From positions 3,840,001 to 3,904,000 of the forward strand of contig OZ219747.1 of assembly GCA_964291265.2 (NCBI GenBank): a stretch of DNA of 64,000 nucleotides, written 5' to 3'. Position numbers and translations under genes: made by a program. Source of the stretch: Alphaproteobacteria bacterium. Lineage in GTDB: Bacteria; Pseudomonadota; Alphaproteobacteria; SP197. Positions 40,806 to 54,069 of the stretch are shown one piece after another (position 1 is the stretch's first letter; each line of letters opens with the position of its first letter). The notes beneath the pieces were generated by a model. That model made no database searches and had not been told where the DNA came from. It saw nothing but the letters and a program-made list of their open reading frames with translations.

Positions 40806-41090
40806 ATGGGTTTCAGACCGTTGCATGACCGTGTTCTCGTGCGCCGTACTGACAGCGACGATGTGTCCACGGGTGGGATCATCATCCCTGACACTGCCAG
40901 GGAAAAGCCGATGGAAGGCGAAGTGATTGCCGTCGGACCGGGAGCACGTGACGACCGCGGCTCCGTTCAGCCCCTCGATGTCGCCAAGGGTGACCGGGTG
41001 CTGTTCGGCAAGTGGTCAGGCACCGAAATCAAGATCGACGGCGAGGAACTCCTCGTCATGAGGGAATCCGACATCATGGGTGTTCTCTAG
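40806..41090 (+). CDS. groES: Co-chaperonin GroES (copy 1)
   Basis: [25 protein letters not shown]. Confidence 0.97.
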
Positions 41091-41120
41091 GGCGACAGCC
41101 GCTCTGCACCCGCACCCTAA

Positions 41121-42809
<1,689 letters not shown>

Positions 42810-44448: not shown

Positions 44449-45789
44449 TCAGGACGACGACTGGCGCGCCGTGATCGCCAGGGCATGGGCATCAAATCCT
44501 TCATAGTCCGCCAGAACTCGGGTAGCGGGAGCGAGGGCATCGTGTCCGGCAGGGGTCAGTTCGGCAACGGACTGGCGCTTGAGAAAGTCCATGACCCCGA
44601 GCGCGGACCGGCTTGCCGCCCTGCCACCGGTGGGCAGCACCGCGTTGACGCCGATCATGTAGTTCGCCATGGAGAACGGCGCATCTTGACCCAGGAGGAT
44701 CTCGCCGGCATTGCTGATGGCATCAAGCCATGCACGGGGGCGCCGGCTGGCTATCTGCAGGTGTTCGGGGGCGAAGGCATTGACAAAATCAAGCGCATCC
44801 CCGGCATCCCGAGCCACGACAAGGCCGCCATTGGCACCCAGCGCCGCACAGGCGCAGCGCCGACGTTCCCGGGACAGAGTCTCGAGGTGCCCGTCAAGGG
44901 CAACGGCCACGGCCTCGGCGAAATCGTCGTTCCAGGTCACCAGGAATACGGTTGAGTCATCGCCGTGTTCGGCCTCGATGAGAAGATCGAGAGCCACACG
45001 GCCGACGTCCGCGGTATCATCGGCGAACACCACGGCCTCCGAGGGCCCCGCTGGCGGTCCGGGCTCGATGTAGTCCGCGCACAAGATCATGGCCGCGCCA
45101 ACCCAGGGTGAGCCGGGTCCGACAATGCGCACGCAACGGGGCACGGTTTCCGTACCGAAGGCGACGGCAGCGACAGCCTGGGCGCCTCCGGCCAGGCACA
45201 CTTCCTCCACTCCCGCCGCCCGGGCCGCCACCAGGGTTGCCGGATCACAACACCCACCCGGCCCCGGCGGCGTCACGATCACCACCTTCTTCACCCCGGC
45301 GATGACCGCCGGGATGGCCGTCATGAGAGCTACCGAAGGAAATGCACCCTTGCCGCGCGGCACGTAACAGGCAACGGAATCAATCGGCACATGGCGTTCT
45401 CCGGCCATGACTCCGGGCCGGACCTCGACCATGTCGAGAGTCGCCGGACGCTGCCTTTCGTGTACGACACGGATGTGGTCTGTCGCCATGTCAATGGCCT
45501 CAGCCACCTCGTCCGGAACGTTCCGGCGTGCCCGGGTGAAATCCTGCGGCGTCACTCTCAGTTGTTCCTTCGACATGGGAACACCATCGAATTCTTCCGC
45601 AAGTCTTATCAGAGCCCGGTCACCCTGCTCGCGCACCGCCTCGACGATGGGACGCGCTCGCTCCACATGACGCGCCATGTCAGGCGCATGACGCACCATG
45701 AGGGCGTCGCGCCGTGCCTGCGACAGGCTCGCCAGACGCAGGATGCGCGGCACGGCAGGAGGAAGAACCGGCTCAGCCAAGGCTGTCAT
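44449..45789 (-). CDS. hisD: Histidinol dehydrogenase family protein
   Basis: CYVPRG, GGAQAVAA, GPGSPW, AGPSE, EAEHG, APEHL, LPTGG; divergent, substrate not certain. Confidence 0.8.
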   Translation of the reverse strand: MTALAEPVLPPAVPRILRLASLSQARRDALMVRHAPDMARHVERARPIVEAVREQGDRALIRLAEEFDGVPMSKEQLRVTPQDFTRARRNVPDEVAEAIDMATDHIRVVHERQRPATLDMVEVRPGVMAGERHVPIDSVACYVPRGKGAFPSVALMTAIPAVIAGVKKVVIVTPPGPGGCCDPATLVAARAAGVEEVCLAGGAQAVAAVAFGTETVPRCVRIVGPGSPWVGAAMILCADYIEPGPPAGPSEAVVFADDTADVGRVALDLLIEAEHGDDSTVFLVTWNDDFAEAVAVALDGHLETLSRERRRCACAALGANGGLVVARDAGDALDFVNAFAPEHLQIASRRPRAWLDAISNAGEILLGQDAPFSMANYMIGVNAVLPTGGRAASRSALGVMDFLKRQSVAELTPAGHDALAPATRVLADYEGFDAHALAITARQSSS

Positions 45790-46174
45790 CCGTCTCCGGA
45801 TCGATGCCCAGTTCGGCAAACACCTTGCGGGCAACGCGGAAGCTCTCGACGCCGGCGGGCATGCCGCAATAGACGGCGATCTGCATCAGGGTATCACGCA
45901 ACGCCGCCAGGGTGACGCCATTGCGCAGGGCCCCTCTGAAGTGCAGCTCGAACTCGTGCATGCGTCCGGACGCTGCCGTCATGCACAGGTTGTTGAGACT
46001 GCGCTGGCAGCGGTCGAGACCTTCTCCGCTCCAGATCTCTCCCCAGCAATAGGTGGTCAGCAGATGCTGGAAACCGGCGTTGAACCGATCCGCTCCGTTG
46101 ATCGCCTTGTCGACGTAATCGACCCCGAGGACGTCACGCCGGATGGCCAGTCCCTTCTCATACATCTCGCTCAT
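45773..46174 (-). CDS. Carboxymuconolactone decarboxylase family protein
   Basis: GLAIRRDVLG, YCWGEIWS, HFRGALRNG, YCGMPAG. Confidence 0.88.
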   Translation of the reverse strand: MSEMYEKGLAIRRDVLGVDYVDKAINGADRFNAGFQHLLTTYCWGEIWSGEGLDRCQRSLNNLCMTAASGRMHEFELHFRGALRNGVTLAALRDTLMQIAVYCGMPAGVESFRVARKVFAELGIDPETDDSLG

Positions 46175-46226
46175 GGCACTCTTCCGGTGATGGACATTTT
46201 TGCGTCCTGTTGCGAGGGGGAAGCAG

Positions 46227-47315
46227 TCAGGCCTGATCGGCAAACAGTCCGGCAAGGGATGCGGCACTGGCTCCGCACAGGCCCCGCTCGGTGATCAACC
46301 CGGTCACGAGTTCGGCCGGAGTGACATCAAAGGCCGGGTTCTCCGGTATCGTTGTCTCGGGCGCAATCGCGACCGATCCCATGGTCCCGTCCTCCGCACG
46401 GCCGGTGACGGTTGTCACTTCGCCGCCACTGCGTTCCTCGATTGGTACGGCATCACCGTCCATGAGGCGCCAGTCGACGGTCGGTGACGGCAGTGCGGCA
46501 TAGAACGGCAGACCATGCCGATGTGCCGCCAGCGCCTTGAGGTAGGTTCCTATCTTGTTGCAGACATCGCCCGAGGCGGTGACACGGTCGGCTCCGGTGA
46601 TGGTCATGTCGACCCGGCCGGTGCGCATGAGATGTCCGGCGGCGTTGTCGACCACGAGGGTGTGCGGCACCCCATGCTGTGCCAGCTCCCATGCGGTCAG
46701 CGACGCACCCTGGTTTCTCGGACGCGTCTCGGAGACCCAGATATGAACGGGAATTCCGGCGTCATGGGCCTTGTACACCGGCGCCAGGGCGGTACCCCAG
46801 TCAACGGTGGCCAACCAACCGGCATTGCAGTGGGTCAAGATCTGAACCGGCCGGCCGGTGTCCTCGTGATGGTCCTTCAGGATAGCCATGCCGTGCTCGC
46901 CGATTGCCTCACAGGTCGCCGCATCCTCATCGCAGATCTCGCGGGCAAGAGCGTAGGCCTCGTCCTCACGGACATTCCGGTCAAGCGTGGTCAGTCTGGC
47001 GAGCACGCGTTCGACCGCCCATCGCAGGTTGACCGCCGTCGGCCGGGTCGCCAGCAGGGTCCGGGCTGCCTCGTCCATGGACGCATCCGATGCATCGCGT
47101 CTCATCGCAAGCGCCATGCCGTAGGCGGCAGTGGCGCCGATCAGTGGCGCCCCTCGCACCAGCATGGCGCGGATGGCATGGGCCGCATCTTCGAGGGTCA
47201 CGAGGGCCGTCGTCACGAACCGGTGCGGCAGACAGGTCTGGTCGATGACAATGACCGTCCTCTCATCATCGGCGACCTGGATCGAACGCCAGACAACACC
47301 GTCGATCTTCATCAC
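46227..47315 (-). CDS. mtnA: S-methyl-5-thioribose-1-phosphate isomerase
   Basis: MLVRGAPLIG, RPTAVNL, LTHCNAGWLA, ETRPRNQG, NKIGTY, NPAFDVTP. Confidence 0.95.
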   Translation of the reverse strand: MMKIDGVVWRSIQVADDERTVIVIDQTCLPHRFVTTALVTLEDAAHAIRAMLVRGAPLIGATAAYGMALAMRRDASDASMDEAARTLLATRPTAVNLRWAVERVLARLTTLDRNVREDEAYALAREICDEDAATCEAIGEHGMAILKDHHEDTGRPVQILTHCNAGWLATVDWGTALAPVYKAHDAGIPVHIWVSETRPRNQGASLTAWELAQHGVPHTLVVDNAAGHLMRTGRVDMTITGADRVTASGDVCNKIGTYLKALAAHRHGLPFYAALPSPTVDWRLMDGDAVPIEERSGGEVTTVTGRAEDGTMGSVAIAPETTIPENPAFDVTPAELVTGLITERGLCGASAASLAGLFADQA

Positions 47316-47835: not shown

Positions 47836-48714
47836 ATGACGGCCGCCCGTACCATCCGCCTCGGTCTTCCCAAGGGCCGCATGCAGGACAATCTCCATGC
47901 CCTTCTCGAGGATGCGGGCATTCACATTCGTTCGGGACGCGCCACCAGCACCCGCGACTATCGGCCGGCGATCTCGCTGCCGGATTTCGATGCCAAGCTT
48001 CTCAAGCCCCAGAACATCGTCGAGATGCTCCACATCGGCAGCCGCGACATCGGTTTCACCGGCCGGGACTGGGTGATCGAGAAGGAAGCCGACCTTGTCG
48101 AACTCGTCGACACCGGACTCGATCCGGTCGAACTCGTCGCCGCGGCGCCCGTGAAGATTCTGCGGGACGGGCGATTGCCCGACCGTCATCTTGTGGTGGC
48201 GAGCGAGTACGAGCGCCTGACCCGCTCGTGGATTGCCGAAGCCTCACTCGACGCCACCTTCGTACGCTCGTACGGAGCCACCGAGGTGTTCCCGCCGGAG
48301 GACGCCGACTGCATCATCGACAACTCGGCCACCGGAGCCACACTGCGCGCCAACGGACTCGAGACCGTTGCCTCCATCCTGACGTCGTCGACGTGCCTCT
48401 TCGCGCATCCGGCAGCCCTTGACGACGCCAACAAGCGCAACGCCATCTCGAGTTTTTCGATGATGATCCGTTCGGTCATCGATGCCAGACGGCGGGTGAT
48501 GGTCGAAGTGAACGTCACAGCCGATTGCCTCGAACCGGTCGTTTCCAGCCTGCCCTCCATGCGCGAGCCGACCATCTCGCCGCTTCACGGAAACAGCGGC
48601 TACTCCGTCAAGGCCGCCGTGCCACGCGACAGGCTGGCGCGTATCATTCCGCGCATCAAGGCGATGGGCGGCTCCGACATCGTTGTCAGCCCCATCAGCA
48701 ATATCGTGGCATGA
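47836..48714 (+). CDS. hisG: ATP phosphoribosyltransferase, long form
   Basis: LPKGRM, GFTGRDW, YGATE, IIDNSATGATLRANGL; C-terminal regulatory domain (PTISPL). Confidence 0.93.
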   Translation: MTAARTIRLGLPKGRMQDNLHALLEDAGIHIRSGRATSTRDYRPAISLPDFDAKLLKPQNIVEMLHIGSRDIGFTGRDWVIEKEADLVELVDTGLDPVELVAAAPVKILRDGRLPDRHLVVASEYERLTRSWIAEASLDATFVRSYGATEVFPPEDADCIIDNSATGATLRANGLETVASILTSSTCLFAHPAALDDANKRNAISSFSMMIRSVIDARRRVMVEVNVTADCLEPVVSSLPSMREPTISPLHGNSGYSVKAAVPRDRLARIIPRIKAMGGSDIVVSPISNIVA

Positions 48715-48744: not shown

Positions 48745-49332
48745 ATGATGGAACGCGTTGCGACAGTCAGCCGATCGACCCGCGAAACCGTCGTGACGGT
48801 TACCGTCAATCTTGACGGCACCGGCCAGAGCGATGTCGTGACCGGACTGAGATTTCTCGACCACCTCCTGGATTCCCTGACGCGGCACAGCCGCATGGAT
48901 GTGGCGCTTCACGCCGAGGGTGACCTGGATGTCGACGATCATCACACGGCGGAAGACTGTGCTCTGACGCTCGGCGCGGCCGTCGACGAGGCTCTGGGGG
49001 ACAAGCGCGGCATCCGCCGCTTCGCCGATGCCCATGTACCGCTCGACGAAGCCGTGGCAAGGGCGGTGATCGATCTTTCCGGACGCCCGTTTGCCCATGT
49101 CGATCTGGACCTCAGGCGCGAGCGCATCGGCGATACGGCGGCGGAGATGATTCCGCACGTTCTCTCGAGTTTCGCCATGGCCGGGCACCTCACGCTTCAT
49201 GTCGACGTGTTGCGCGGCATCAACGACCACCATCGCGCCGAAGCGGCGTTCAAGGCGGTCGCTGTCGCCCTGCGCCAGGCGGTCGCCCTCGATGATCACG
49301 ACGAGATTCCGAGCACGAAGGGACGCCTGTGA
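48745..49332 (+). CDS. hisB: Imidazoleglycerol-phosphate dehydratase
   Basis: FLDHLL, DDHHTAED, NDHHRAEA, PSTKG. Confidence 0.95.
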   Translation: MMERVATVSRSTRETVVTVTVNLDGTGQSDVVTGLRFLDHLLDSLTRHSRMDVALHAEGDLDVDDHHTAEDCALTLGAAVDEALGDKRGIRRFADAHVPLDEAVARAVIDLSGRPFAHVDLDLRRERIGDTAAEMIPHVLSSFAMAGHLTLHVDVLRGINDHHRAEAAFKAVAVALRQAVALDDHDEIPSTKGRL

Positions 49333-49934
49333 CCGTGCCCGAGGTCGTGGTCTGCCGCACGGGAACGGCCAATCTTGCCTCGGTCCTCGCTGCACTCAGA
49401 CGTGCCGGCGGCGTGCCCCGCACCGGCCGCTCGGCCGACGACATCCGGACGGCTACCCATGTCGTGCTGCCTGGCGTGGGGACCTTCGGCGCCGCCATGG
49501 ACACGCTTCGCGACAGCGGGACGGACGTGGCCCTGAAACAGCACATGGAGAGCGGGAAGCCGCTTCTCGCCATCTGTGTCGGATTCCAGCTCCTGTGCCG
49601 TTCCAGCGAGGAATCCCCGGGCGTCACCGGCCTTGGCCTTGTCGATGACGGGGTGACGCGGTTTCCCGCAGGGGTGCGGGTTCCCCAGTTCGGCTGGAAC
49701 AGTCTGGCGCCCGAGAGCGGCTGCAGGGCGCTCGTCGCCGGCCATGCCTACTTTGCCAACTCCTATCGTCTCGAGCGCGCTCCCCGGGGCTGGCATGCCG
49801 CCATGGCGGACCATGGCGGACCCTTCGTTGCGGCACTGGAACGCGACGCCCTTGTCGCCTGCCAGTTCCATCCGGAACTATCCGGTTCCTGGGGCGCGGC
49901 ACTGATCGGCCGCTGGCTGGCCATGCCATGTTGA
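49329..49934 (+). CDS. hisH: Imidazole glycerol phosphate synthase, glutaminase subunit
   Basis: LPGVG, ICVGFQ, QFHPE. Confidence 0.93.
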   Translation: MTVPEVVVCRTGTANLASVLAALRRAGGVPRTGRSADDIRTATHVVLPGVGTFGAAMDTLRDSGTDVALKQHMESGKPLLAICVGFQLLCRSSEESPGVTGLGLVDDGVTRFPAGVRVPQFGWNSLAPESGCRALVAGHAYFANSYRLERAPRGWHAAMADHGGPFVAALERDALVACQFHPELSGSWGAALIGRWLAMPC

Positions 49935-50713
49935 CTGCACGGGTCATCCCCTGCCTCGACGTCGACGCCGGGCGCGTCGTCAAGGGCATCCGTTTCCAGG
50001 GGTTGAAGGACGCCGGCGATCCGGTGGAACGGGCCACGGCCTACGAACGACAGGGTGCCGACGAGATCGTCATGCTTGATGTGTCGGCAACACCGCGAGG
50101 CAGGCACAATGCCCGCGACGCCGTGGCAGCGGTGCGCCAGGACCTGGCCATTCCACTTACCGTGGGCGGTGGCGTCAGGTCGGTCAACGACGCCCGTGCC
50201 CTGCTCGAGGCCGGAGCGGACAAGGTCGCGGCCAACACCGCCGCTGTTTCGAGACCGGAACTCCTCGCGGAGATGGCCAGCAGGTTCGGGCGCCAATGCA
50301 CCGTCGTTGCCATCGATGCAGCCGCCCGTGGTAAAGCCTGGGAGGTCGTCACCCTGTCGGGCCGCCAGCGCACGGGCATGGATGCCGTCCACTGGGCCGT
50401 CAGGGCGGTCGAACACGGCGCCGGCGAAATCCTGCTGACCAGCTGGGATCGAGACGGGACCCGTTCGGGCTACGAGACCAGGCTCATCGCCGCCGTGGCT
50501 GCCGCCGTACCGGTTCCGGTCATCGCTTCCGGCGGCGCCGCCTCACCCGGCCATCTCGTGGAGGCCCTCAGACACGGCGCCGACGCGGTGCTGGCCGCCT
50601 CCATCTTCCACGAGTCCGACTACACGGTCGGTGACGTCAAGCAGGCCATGGCCGGAGCGGGCATTCCGACACGACCGTGTCCCGAGCACGAACACCGGGG
50701 AACACACCCATGA
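49928..50713 (+). CDS. hisF: Imidazole glycerol phosphate synthase, cyclase subunit
   Basis: RVIPCLDV, VVKG, GADE, GAGEILLTS, DRDGT, LAASIFH. Confidence 0.95.
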   Translation: MLTARVIPCLDVDAGRVVKGIRFQGLKDAGDPVERATAYERQGADEIVMLDVSATPRGRHNARDAVAAVRQDLAIPLTVGGGVRSVNDARALLEAGADKVAANTAAVSRPELLAEMASRFGRQCTVVAIDAAARGKAWEVVTLSGRQRTGMDAVHWAVRAVEHGAGEILLTSWDRDGTRSGYETRLIAAVAAAVPVPVIASGGAASPGHLVEALRHGADAVLAASIFHESDYTVGDVKQAMAGAGIPTRPCPEHEHRGTHP

Positions 50714-51957
50714 TCATCCCGTCGATCGACCTGTCGAATGGCCAGGCCGTGCAGCTTGTCGGTGGCAGGGATCCTCGCATCGAGGCCGGTGATCCCCGGC
50801 CGATTGCCGAGCGCTTCCGCCTGGCCGGGGAGATCGCGGTCATCGACCTCGACGCCGCCCGCGGGACCGGTCACAACCACGCTCTCGTCGAGGAGCTCGT
50901 GCGCATGGCCCCCTGCCGGGTCGGGGGCGGTATTCGGGACATCGACACGGCACGGCACTGGCTCGATGCCGGTGCCCGCAAGGTCATCCTCGGGACCGCG
51001 GCCACTCCGGAGATTCTCTCTCGCCTGCCGCGCCAGCGCGTCATCGTCGCCCTCGATGCCCTGCATGACGAGGTGGTCACCCACGGCTGGACAACACGGA
51101 GCGGCGAGACCGTGGTGGCCGGGATGGCACGGCTGCGCGGCCTTGCCGGCGGCTTTCTCGTCACCTTCGTCGAGCGCGAGGGGAAAATGGAAGGAACGGA
51201 TCTCGACCGCGCCCTTGCCCTCGCCGGGGCGGCAGGCGATGCCCGCCTGACGGTGGCAGGCGGATTCACCAGCCCCCTTGAAATCGCCACGGCCGATCGT
51301 GCCGGCATCGACGCCCAGGTCGGAATGGCGCTCTATTCGGGAGCCCTTCACCTTGCCGATGCCATTGCCGCGCCGCTGGCAAGCGACAGACCGGATGGCC
51401 TGTGGCCGACCGTCGTGGTGGACCTGCACCAGCGGGCCCTTGGGCTGGCGTGGTCGGATGCCGAGAGCCTGCGCGCCGCCGTCGAGCGGAAGGCAGGTGT
51501 CTATCACTCTCGCACCCGGGGGCTGTGGATCAAGGGTGAGACATCCGGCGCCACACAGGATCTGCTGAGGATCGACCCCGACTGTGACCGCGATGCCCTG
51601 AAGTTCACCGTGCGCCAAGCGGGCAGCGGCTTCTGTCACCTCGGAACTCCGACCTGCTGGGGGGGCGACTCGGGCCTTCCGGCCCTTGTCCGCGTTCTCG
51701 CCGACCGCCTGGCGGACGCTCCCGCCGGCTCGTACACCGCCCGGCTCCTCAGCGAACCGGCGATGCTCGAGGCAAAGCTCCTCGAGGAAGCCGGAGAACT
51801 GGCCCGGGCCGGGACACGGGCCGATGTCATCCACGAAGCGGCCGACGTCATCTTCTTCGCCCTGGTCGCCGCGGTCCGTGCCGAGGTGGACCTCGCCGAC
51901 ATCGAAGGAGAACTCGACCGCCGGGCCCTCGCCGTTACAAGGCGCTCGGCCACCTGA
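50710..51957 (+). CDS. HisA-like / HisI / HisE fusion protein
   Basis: N-terminal IPSIDL..DLDAA..VGGGIR (HisA/HisF barrel); KGETSG..DCDRDA..FCH..TCW (HisI); KLLEEAGE..HEAADV (HisE); ATGA overlap with hisF. Confidence 0.88.
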   Translation: MIIPSIDLSNGQAVQLVGGRDPRIEAGDPRPIAERFRLAGEIAVIDLDAARGTGHNHALVEELVRMAPCRVGGGIRDIDTARHWLDAGARKVILGTAATPEILSRLPRQRVIVALDALHDEVVTHGWTTRSGETVVAGMARLRGLAGGFLVTFVEREGKMEGTDLDRALALAGAAGDARLTVAGGFTSPLEIATADRAGIDAQVGMALYSGALHLADAIAAPLASDRPDGLWPTVVVDLHQRALGLAWSDAESLRAAVERKAGVYHSRTRGLWIKGETSGATQDLLRIDPDCDRDALKFTVRQAGSGFCHLGTPTCWGGDSGLPALVRVLADRLADAPAGSYTARLLSEPAMLEAKLLEEAGELARAGTRADVIHEAADVIFFALVAAVRAEVDLADIEGELDRRALAVTRRSAT

Positions 51958-52107: not shown

Positions 52108-52395
52108 ATGGCATTCCGTCCGTTGCACGACCGCGTTCTGGTTCGCCGCCTTGACAGCGACGAAGTCACCGCGGGCGGCATCATCATTCCAGACACTGCC
52201 AAGGAAAAGCCGATGGAAGGCGAAGTCGTCGCCACCGGCCCTGGCGCTCGCGACGAGTCCGGTGCGATCCAGGCGCTCGACGTCAAGGCGGGTGACCGGA
52301 TTCTCTTCGGCAAGTGGTCTGGCACCGAGGTCAAGATCGATGGCGACGAACTCCTCATCATGAAGGAGTCCGACATCATGGGTGTCATCGAGTGA
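52108..52395 (+). CDS. groES: Co-chaperonin GroES (copy 2)
   Basis: RBS AGGAGG; [23 protein letters not shown]. Confidence 0.97.

Positions 52396-54069
<1,674 letters not shown>

Follow-up and report, generated by a model that had tools for sequence, protein, structure and literature searches.

A HisA-HisI-HisE fusion in an alphaproteobacterial histidine operon and a likely bacterial origin for the N-terminal region of fungal His4

Fungal His4 starts with a region of 160–220 residues for which, in the accessible part of the survey by Fani et al. (2007, PMC1963479), no homologue is reported, and that survey found nothing like His4 in prokaryotes. The question of where this region comes from is raised by a single open reading frame (ORF), hisAIE, in a 64,000-nucleotide stretch of an alphaproteobacterial genome (assembly GCA_964291265.2, contig OZ219747.1, positions 3,840,001–3,904,000; hereafter, the window), which an initial annotation, made from the sequence alone, read as a HisA/HisI/HisE triple fusion and proposed as the bacterial architecture behind the N-terminal part of His4. 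The reading preferred here, with a probability of roughly 0.8, is that this ORF encodes one HisA-HisI-HisE polypeptide predicted to catalyze steps 2–4 of histidine synthesis, that it belongs to a probably acquired operon, and that its family would be ancestral to the front two-thirds of the fungal His4 module consisting of the N-terminal (N) region and HisIE, in which the barrel has decayed.

The 415-amino acid (aa) ORF is a HisA barrel joined to HisI and HisE. All three Pfam domains exceed their curated cut-offs (His_biosynth, aa 1–213, E = 2e-40; PRA-CH, aa 246–317, E = 4e-23; PRA-PH, aa 325–405, E = 4e-15), in agreement with the initial annotation, and each motif that it quoted for this protein is found in the translation. 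In sequence searches of the PDB, the closest solved structures are PriA/HisA for aa 2–221 and the Shigella HisIE for aa 225–404, and the predicted model of a family member (P0122) superposes on PriA/HisA with a root-mean-square deviation (rmsd) of about 2. Conservation was counted over 239 full-length homologues out of 241 proteins, and across all 239 the barrel residues Asp7, Asp46, GGGIR 72–76, GT 95–96, Asp116, Trp127, Glu155, Glu157, AGG 183–185 and Gly205 show no or almost no variation; this is a His-type barrel with both phosphate-binding motifs (GGGIR, GT, AGG and Gly205 conserved). The HisI residues SR 267–268, WIKGETS 273–279, DCDRD 291–295, Cys309-His310 and Cys316 are conserved in the family, and the HisE residues Glu359, Glu360, Glu363, Glu376 and Asp379 are invariant in the 239 homologues. 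All the metal and phosphate residues of HisI and HisE that are described for the plant enzyme MtHISN2 in the accessible text of PMC8102479 are present. The HisI and HisE domains of the fusion are the only copies in the genome, and the ORF stops after HisE, without the C-terminal HisD of fungal His4. With the rest of the fusion family, this protein shares the A-I-E order in one ORF, the motif TFVE(R/K/V)EG and a common clade in both domain trees. Two other explanations of the ORF were rejected, namely that the barrel is HisF (a separate hisF lies directly upstream, and the NCBIfam scores and the barrel tree disagree with this assignment) and that the fusion is an assembly artefact (a full-length, stop-free fusion is present in 22 of the 24 genomes from the same taxonomic family).

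The fused barrel departs from canonical HisA at the position of the catalytic acid. Here, Asp7 and Asp176 are taken to be the catalytic base and the catalytic acid of HisA, respectively, and Glu157 of the fusion to occupy the column of the acid; D7N and D176A variants are named in the PDB titles of HisA-type structures. Asp7 is present in all 239 homologues, and the place of Asp176 is taken by Glu157 of TFVEREG, which aligns with the Asp of TDIAKDG in PriA, so that the substitution singled out in the initial annotation holds. In this column, Asp is found in 20/20 canonical standalone HisA, and Glu in 239/239 fusion homologues, in 24 of the 26 divergent family members and in all 15 standalone HisA proteins of Gemmatimonadota (L027–L041), which are the only HisA in each of the five genomes checked; the canonical Asp four residues before the acid position is Phe in the fusion. 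Apart from HisF, 13 of 14 other genomes encode no full-length His-type barrel but the fused one (completeness of 91–100% for the five where it is known; one genome, G467, has a partial third match). The fusion is likely to be trifunctional, with steps 2–4 of histidine synthesis predicted to reside in one polypeptide. In the proposed scheme, the helical bundle of HisE would remove pyrophosphate from phosphoribosyl-ATP at a Mg site made of Glu360, Glu363, Glu376 and Asp379, the barrel would carry out the Amadori rearrangement of phosphoribosylformimino-5-aminoimidazole carboxamide ribotide (ProFAR) to its phosphoribulosyl isomer (PRFAR) with Asp7 as the base and Glu157 replacing the usual Asp as the acid (the residues in both sites being assigned by conservation), and PRFAR would be handed to HisFH, encoded immediately upstream.

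The relationship with fungi is apparent from the HisIE part. A profile of 38 bacterial HisA-HisI-HisE-HisD (A-I-E-D) proteins was used to retrieve fungal His4 (from Mortierellaceae, Mycena, Blastocladiella, Zancudomyces, Melampsora, Cladochytrium and Ascoidea) along with a choanoflagellate protein of N-I-E-D layout. The HisIE trees agree in placing fungi and protists within the fusion family (FastTree with 142 rows, a quick IQ-TREE run with 84 and a careful one with 46). The careful tree contains three nested supported branches (99/89, 100/98 and 100/93), with the window protein in the innermost one and canonical HisIE set apart from the fusion family by the 99/89 branch; in the quick tree, the split that unites fungi and protists with the fusion family has a Shimodaira–Hasegawa-like approximate likelihood ratio test (SH-aLRT) support of 98. 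Forcing the fungi together with canonical HisIE, the outcome that would have spoken against the initial annotation, is rejected by the approximately unbiased (AU) test (p-AU = 0.0005). Divergent bacterial members of the family branch below the eukaryotes in both the HisIE and the barrel trees, and in the barrel tree, the protist barrels fall inside the fusion family (SH-aLRT 97).

Profile comparisons and predicted models suggest that fungal His4 likely begins with a degenerate version of the HisA barrel of this family. In a profile alignment, 45 fungal N regions align with the barrel up to the HisI junction. The fungal N profile matches two independent sets of family barrels with a probability of 96.9–97.2 (E = 1.8e-10 and 4.4e-11), whereas canonical HisA gives E = 1.6e-6, HisF gives 3e-4 and no reversed control does better than 0.07; after the junction is trimmed and misfiled rows are removed, the values are 8e-9 and 1.5e-9 for the family barrels, 2.9e-6 for canonical HisA and 5e-4 for HisF. 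The motifs GGG[IVL]R and G[TS]AA are missing from all 45 fungal N regions, and the column of Asp7 holds Asp in 19 of them and Asn in 17, whereas the L-D-x-G and P-x-x-R motifs are retained in register (Gly in 44/45, Pro in 42/45, Arg in 44/45). Graded intermediates between the family barrel and the fungal N region are represented by proteins P0359, P0363 and the choanoflagellate P0246. When the N region of Mortierellaceae served as the database query, the 5129 candidates yielded 30 proteins from Mortierellaceae and none from bacteria; therefore, the link between His4 and the barrel is invisible to ordinary searches.

The structural comparison points in the same direction. PDB sequence searches returned no solved structure of His4. 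An AlphaFold2 prediction made from 40 fungal sequences only, without templates and with HisA kept out of the alignment, folds residues 1–206 of Mortierella His4 into eight beta-alpha units with a predicted local distance difference test score (pLDDT) of about 90. When this predicted domain is searched with Foldseek, PriA, HisF and HisA lead among the barrels, and in a VIA-align comparison with 48,161 chains, HisA (4gj1) comes first (Z 16.2, rmsd 2.5, 184 aligned residues); the single match in the ESM Atlas, at 0.76, is under the reliability level of that resource and was not used. The structural check suggested in the initial annotation thus yields a predicted triosephosphate isomerase (TIM) barrel with HisA as the top match, and the profiles favor the barrel of the fusion family. 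Fungi have a separate isomerase, His6 (PDB 2agk), and in these organisms the barrel fold would have been kept and the active site lost, leaving a probably non-catalytic domain. A bacterial parallel to this decay is an operon of Pirellulaceae (L026, 2801–9054) that consists of hisG, a hisC-like:hisB fusion, hisH, hisF, HisIE with a decayed barrel, and hisD; there, the barrel is a 136-residue remnant, and a canonical hisA is encoded elsewhere in the genome (L095).

The C-terminal part of fungal His4 has another source. The HisD motifs of the bacterial A-I-E-D proteins, YAPGGR[FY]PLPS and QAEHD, are shared with the amoebozoan and choanoflagellate proteins, whereas those of fungal HisD are enterobacterial (YVPGG[TS]A[VI]LPS, QAEHG and GDYASGTNH). 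In the HisD tree, fungi group with the enterobacterial-type HisD (SH-aLRT 97), the remaining types group together (97), and forcing fungal HisD together with the A-I-E-D type is rejected by the AU test (p-AU = 1.5e-6; 26 of 42 rows, LG+G4, with the group named after the motifs and the tree had been seen). Descent of His4 over its whole length from bacterial A-I-E-D proteins was rejected on the motifs, the tree and the AU test, and because fungal HisD is of the enterobacterial type, unlike the HisD of A-I-E-D, His4 is a chimera. In a wider reading, which goes further than the preferred one and is held with correspondingly less conviction although it is still favored on balance, His4 would be a three-way chimera of a dead HisA barrel and HisIE, both derived from a mobile operon via early eukaryotes, and a swapped HisD, taken from an enterobacterial-type gene; the barrel would serve as a structural or regulatory pseudo-enzyme, and the bacterial family would constitute an isomerase subfamily with Glu as the acid.

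The operon appears to be of foreign origin in this alphaproteobacterium. Of the 24 genomes from this taxonomic family, 22 have an intact fusion, one a frameshifted copy and one none, and no intact fusion occurs in the 16 other genomes of the class in the same draw; among 301 genomes drawn from the class, the fusion is present in eight, and outside the family in 4/297. A database search scored 7998 candidates, of which 7873 were better than E = 1e-20; the 120 best, whose domains were inspected, are 63–93% identical to the query and all contain the three Pfam domains. The nearest records are titled Alphaproteobacteria, and the next full-length relatives, at 57–65% identity, come from Myxococcales, Phycisphaerales, Longimicrobiales and Fimbriimonadia. 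Among 120 longer relatives listed, 111 are forms of 806–950 aa with HisD added (from Myxococcota, Gemmatimonadota and Phycisphaerae where named), and the remaining nine are larger or different fusions of mostly eukaryotic source, including a 1682-aa protein of Acanthamoeba. A matching gene order is found in Myxococcota, Planctomycetota, Gemmatimonadota and Armatimonadota, mostly as G-(gap of at least one gene)-B-H-F-AIE-D, and in the Pirellulaceae operon, the gap holds a hisC-type gene. The hisG, hisB and hisH products of the window show mean identities of 58.5, 56.6 and 51.4%, respectively, to those of the foreign AIE operons, compared with 32–43% to those of canonical operons. Because the same operon occurs in these four phyla, the his operon was likely acquired sideways, with displacement of the native genes.

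Several side observations concern the same protein family and the genus. The A-I-E core also occurs with other partners (H-F-A-I-E-B, A-I-E-G, and A-I-E-D with further domains, among proteins P0166, P0189, P0202, P0228, P0242, P0243, P0245 and P0359); the H, F and A parts of P0359 are all eroded, and an Arcella protein combines an eroded barrel with a C-terminal aminotransferase-like extension. In one member of the genus, G018, the fusion is split over two frames (C1:3582880–3584119), and in another, G009 (99% complete), no match was found for the fusion, hisF or hisD; these two genomes may point to an ongoing loss of histidine synthesis.

A number of observations weigh against the preferred reading, and three alternatives draw on some of them. 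The barrel scores 135.5 bits against the NCBIfam HisA model TIGR00007 (cut-off 228.95), and the HisIE part scores 116.9 against NF002747 for canonical bifunctional HisIE (cut-off 187), whereas a second, standalone HisA-like gene of the genome (C2:36811–37491) reaches 172.8 bits with TIGR00007, above the fused barrel. Step 4 could then be performed by this gene, which is conserved in most members of the genus, with the fused barrel, having Glu in place of the acid Asp, reduced to a structural or weakly active role. However, in the standalone protein it is the first catalytic Asp that is replaced by Glu (PTIEI), its branch among the alphaproteobacterial HisA of the barrel tree is very long (1.73), and G009, devoid of the fusion, hisF and hisD, has retained the gene, of which no copy turned up in G003 or G006, two genomes with the operon. 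Because of the Glu for Asp7 and the retention in G009, the standalone protein probably does not serve the pathway; with its long branch and its conservation in the genus, it is a candidate for a repurposed native HisA. Together with the near-invariance of the active site of the fused barrel in 239 homologues and the lack of an alternative HisA in 13 of 14 other genomes, this makes an assignment of step 4 to the standalone gene improbable.

For the N domain of His4, the question is whether its likeness to HisA is generic, i.e. whether another TIM barrel, derived from HisF or unrelated, was fused independently to HisIE. In the structural comparison, hexulose-phosphate synthase (15.4) and HisF-LUCA (15.2) are level with HisA 4gj1 to within 1 Z, several barrel families lie within 1–2 Z units, and therefore, the fold alone cannot pick HisA. 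The sequence signal is uneven as well: 30 of the 45 fungal N regions come from Mortierellaceae, without which the ranking is the same and the match to the family loses strength (E between 7e-6 and 3e-8, or between 3e-6 and 6e-6 once the junction is trimmed), the match is restricted to barrel positions 79–221, and a single-sequence hidden Markov model (HMM) comparison of the family barrel with the fungal N regions gives noise-level scores (best, 11 bits). Against an independent barrel stand the lead of the family barrel over ordinary HisA and HisF by 4 to 7 orders of magnitude in the profile comparisons, the two motifs in register, an alignment that reaches the HisI junction, next to a HisIE that nests in the very family bearing this barrel, and the graded intermediates; such an origin is regarded as slightly less probable still than step 4 by the standalone gene. 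The least probable of the alternatives, with hardly any weight, is that the alphaproteobacterial form lies near the real donor (e.g. through the mitochondrial ancestor) or that the family spread from eukaryotes to bacteria. The alphaproteobacterial titles of the nearest records would fit a donor of this kind, and branching within the family, including the core clade, is poorly resolved in the HisIE trees, so that no donor lineage is singled out; yet the neighbors of the window protein in the HisIE tree are a second alphaproteobacterial copy and a sequence labelled Planctomycetes (97/87) rather than eukaryotes, the divergent bacterial members lie below the eukaryotes in both domain trees, and a relic native HisA remains in the genome. 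An alphaproteobacterial donor was rejected on the rarity of the fusion in the class outside the family, the placement in the HisIE tree and the relic HisA in the barrel tree; as far as these sequences indicate, this alphaproteobacterium received the fusion rather than donating it. Two further points count against the preferred reading: hisF hardly separates the operon types (60.9 vs 55.4% identity), and S. cerevisiae His4 is not among the retrieved fungal sequences. Equivalents of the yeast His4 motifs cited in the initial annotation occur in the retrieved fungal His4 sequences. The broader proposal of that annotation survives for the N barrel and HisIE and needs correction in that the architecture is not special to this alphaproteobacterium, the window protein is not sister to the eukaryotic sequences, and HisD came from elsewhere.

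Under the preferred reading, an operon of the form G-(C)-B-H-F-AIE-D would move among bacterial phyla, and in this alphaproteobacterial family it would have replaced the native his genes, leaving the native HisA as a fast-evolving orphan. One copy would have entered eukaryotes and fused further, as in the H-F-A-I-E-D-G protein of Acanthamoeba. In the wider reading, a mobile G-C-B-H-F-AIE-D operon would underlie the amoebozoan and choanoflagellate megaproteins.

In the window, the fusion gene is the last in the order hisG-hisB-hisH-hisF-hisAIE, with the final three junctions overlapping (Table 1), and is followed downstream by groES-groEL. The genome is 100% complete in two contigs; hisC is located elsewhere in it, and hisZ has no match above the cut-off in it. 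A divergent gene of the HisD family lies 2 kb upstream of the operon on the opposite strand, differs from the HisD type usual for the operon and is linked to the his operon in most members of the genus. Compared with E. coli HisD, its product has Gln replaced by Glu in QAEH, Asp by Asn in GDY and His by Ala in NHVLP; the altered residues are presumably metal ligands in the E. coli enzyme. Given the linkage to the operon, there are two readings: a functional HisD whose metal site is altered, or a pathway that lacks its final step. Between hisG and this gene, on the strand of the latter, are mtnA (methylthioribose-1-phosphate isomerase) and a carboxymuconolactone decarboxylase-family gene (45,773–47,315, minus strand). 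The window contains two groES-groEL pairs, at 40,806–42,719 and 52,108–54,069, which are 11 kb apart and encode proteins that are 78–80% identical. Promoter and terminator scans gave no usable result.

Table 1. Histidine synthesis genes of the window and the domains of the fusion protein.
Feature	Position	Strand	Basis
hisG, leading gene of the operon; long form, carrying a regulatory domain at the C terminus	47836..48714	+	PF01634 + PF08029
hisB, monofunctional imidazoleglycerol-phosphate dehydratase	48745..49332	+	PF00475
hisH, overlaps hisB and hisF	49329..49934	+	TIGR01855 over cut-off
hisF, stop overlaps the start of the fusion gene (ATGA)	49928..50713	+	TIGR00735 over cut-off
hisA-hisI-hisE fusion gene	50710..51957	+	ATG at 50710, TGA at 51957; 415 aa, no internal stops
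HisA-type (beta/alpha)8 barrel, aa 1–222	50710..51375	+	PF00977, aa 1–213
HisI phosphoribosyl-AMP cyclohydrolase core, aa 246–317	51445..51660	+	PF01502
HisE phosphoribosyl-ATP pyrophosphohydrolase core, aa 325–405	51682..51924	+	PF01503; TIGR03188 over cut-off
Divergent HisD-family gene	44449..45834	-	TIGR00069 over cut-off; single match in the genome

The fusion as such is widespread, joins textbook enzyme steps and has already been noted in print, although it is little described. Trifunctional proteins combining phosphoribosyl-ATP pyrophosphohydrolase with phosphoribosyl-AMP cyclohydrolase and ProFAR isomerase are mentioned for some Gammaproteobacteria and Spirochaetia, placed close to HIS4 of fungi by a similarity network (Witek et al. 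2021, PMC8102479), and HisA/F-HisIE fusions for four archaeal assemblies (PMC11237513). These proteins have the same three domains as the one described here; in the accessible text of both papers, the architecture takes up one sentence, with no mechanism, assay or link to the His4 N region, and the present copy is alphaproteobacterial. The heptafunctional His protein of Acanthamoeba castellanii (1682 aa; P0152), the origin of which is left open in the accessible text of Rice et al. (2018, PMC6029752), contains an A-I-E module that is 54% identical to the window protein over 99% of the query, includes TFVEREG and keeps the operon order H-F-A-I-E-D; unlike the window protein, it is eukaryotic and also comprises HisH, HisF, HisD and HisG. 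According to the accessible part of Fani et al. (2007, PMC1963479), His7 of S. pombe consists of the N region and HisIE (417 aa), nearly the same length and layout as in the 415-aa window protein.

Standalone HisA and PriA (TIGR00007; 1vzw, 4gj1 and 5a5w) and HisIE (NF002747; 6j22 and 7bgm) have the same folds and most of the active-site residues of the fusion, from which they differ in that the latter is fused, has Glu as the acid and Phe for Asp, scores below both cut-offs and belongs to separate clades. With the PriA model TIGR01919, the fusion scores 73.9 bits, below the cut-off of 306. Fungal His4 shares with the window protein a HisIE of one clade (100/93) and a predicted homologous barrel in the N region, but this barrel is devoid of the phosphate-binding motifs and is accompanied by the enterobacterial-type HisD, whereas the window protein has no HisD. 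No publication identifying the N region of His4 as a HisA barrel was found in a literature search that left most subscription journals and supplements outside its reach.

The window gene can serve as an intact reference for the origin of the N region of fungal His4, and the comparisons supply a specific origin for this region, as predicted above, and for the Acanthamoeba megafusion. Bacterial A-I-E-D proteins do exist, but because their HisD differs, they are not ancestors of His4 over its whole length. To our knowledge, fungal histidine synthesis has no human counterpart, and the identity of the His4 N domain is, for this reason, of some practical interest.

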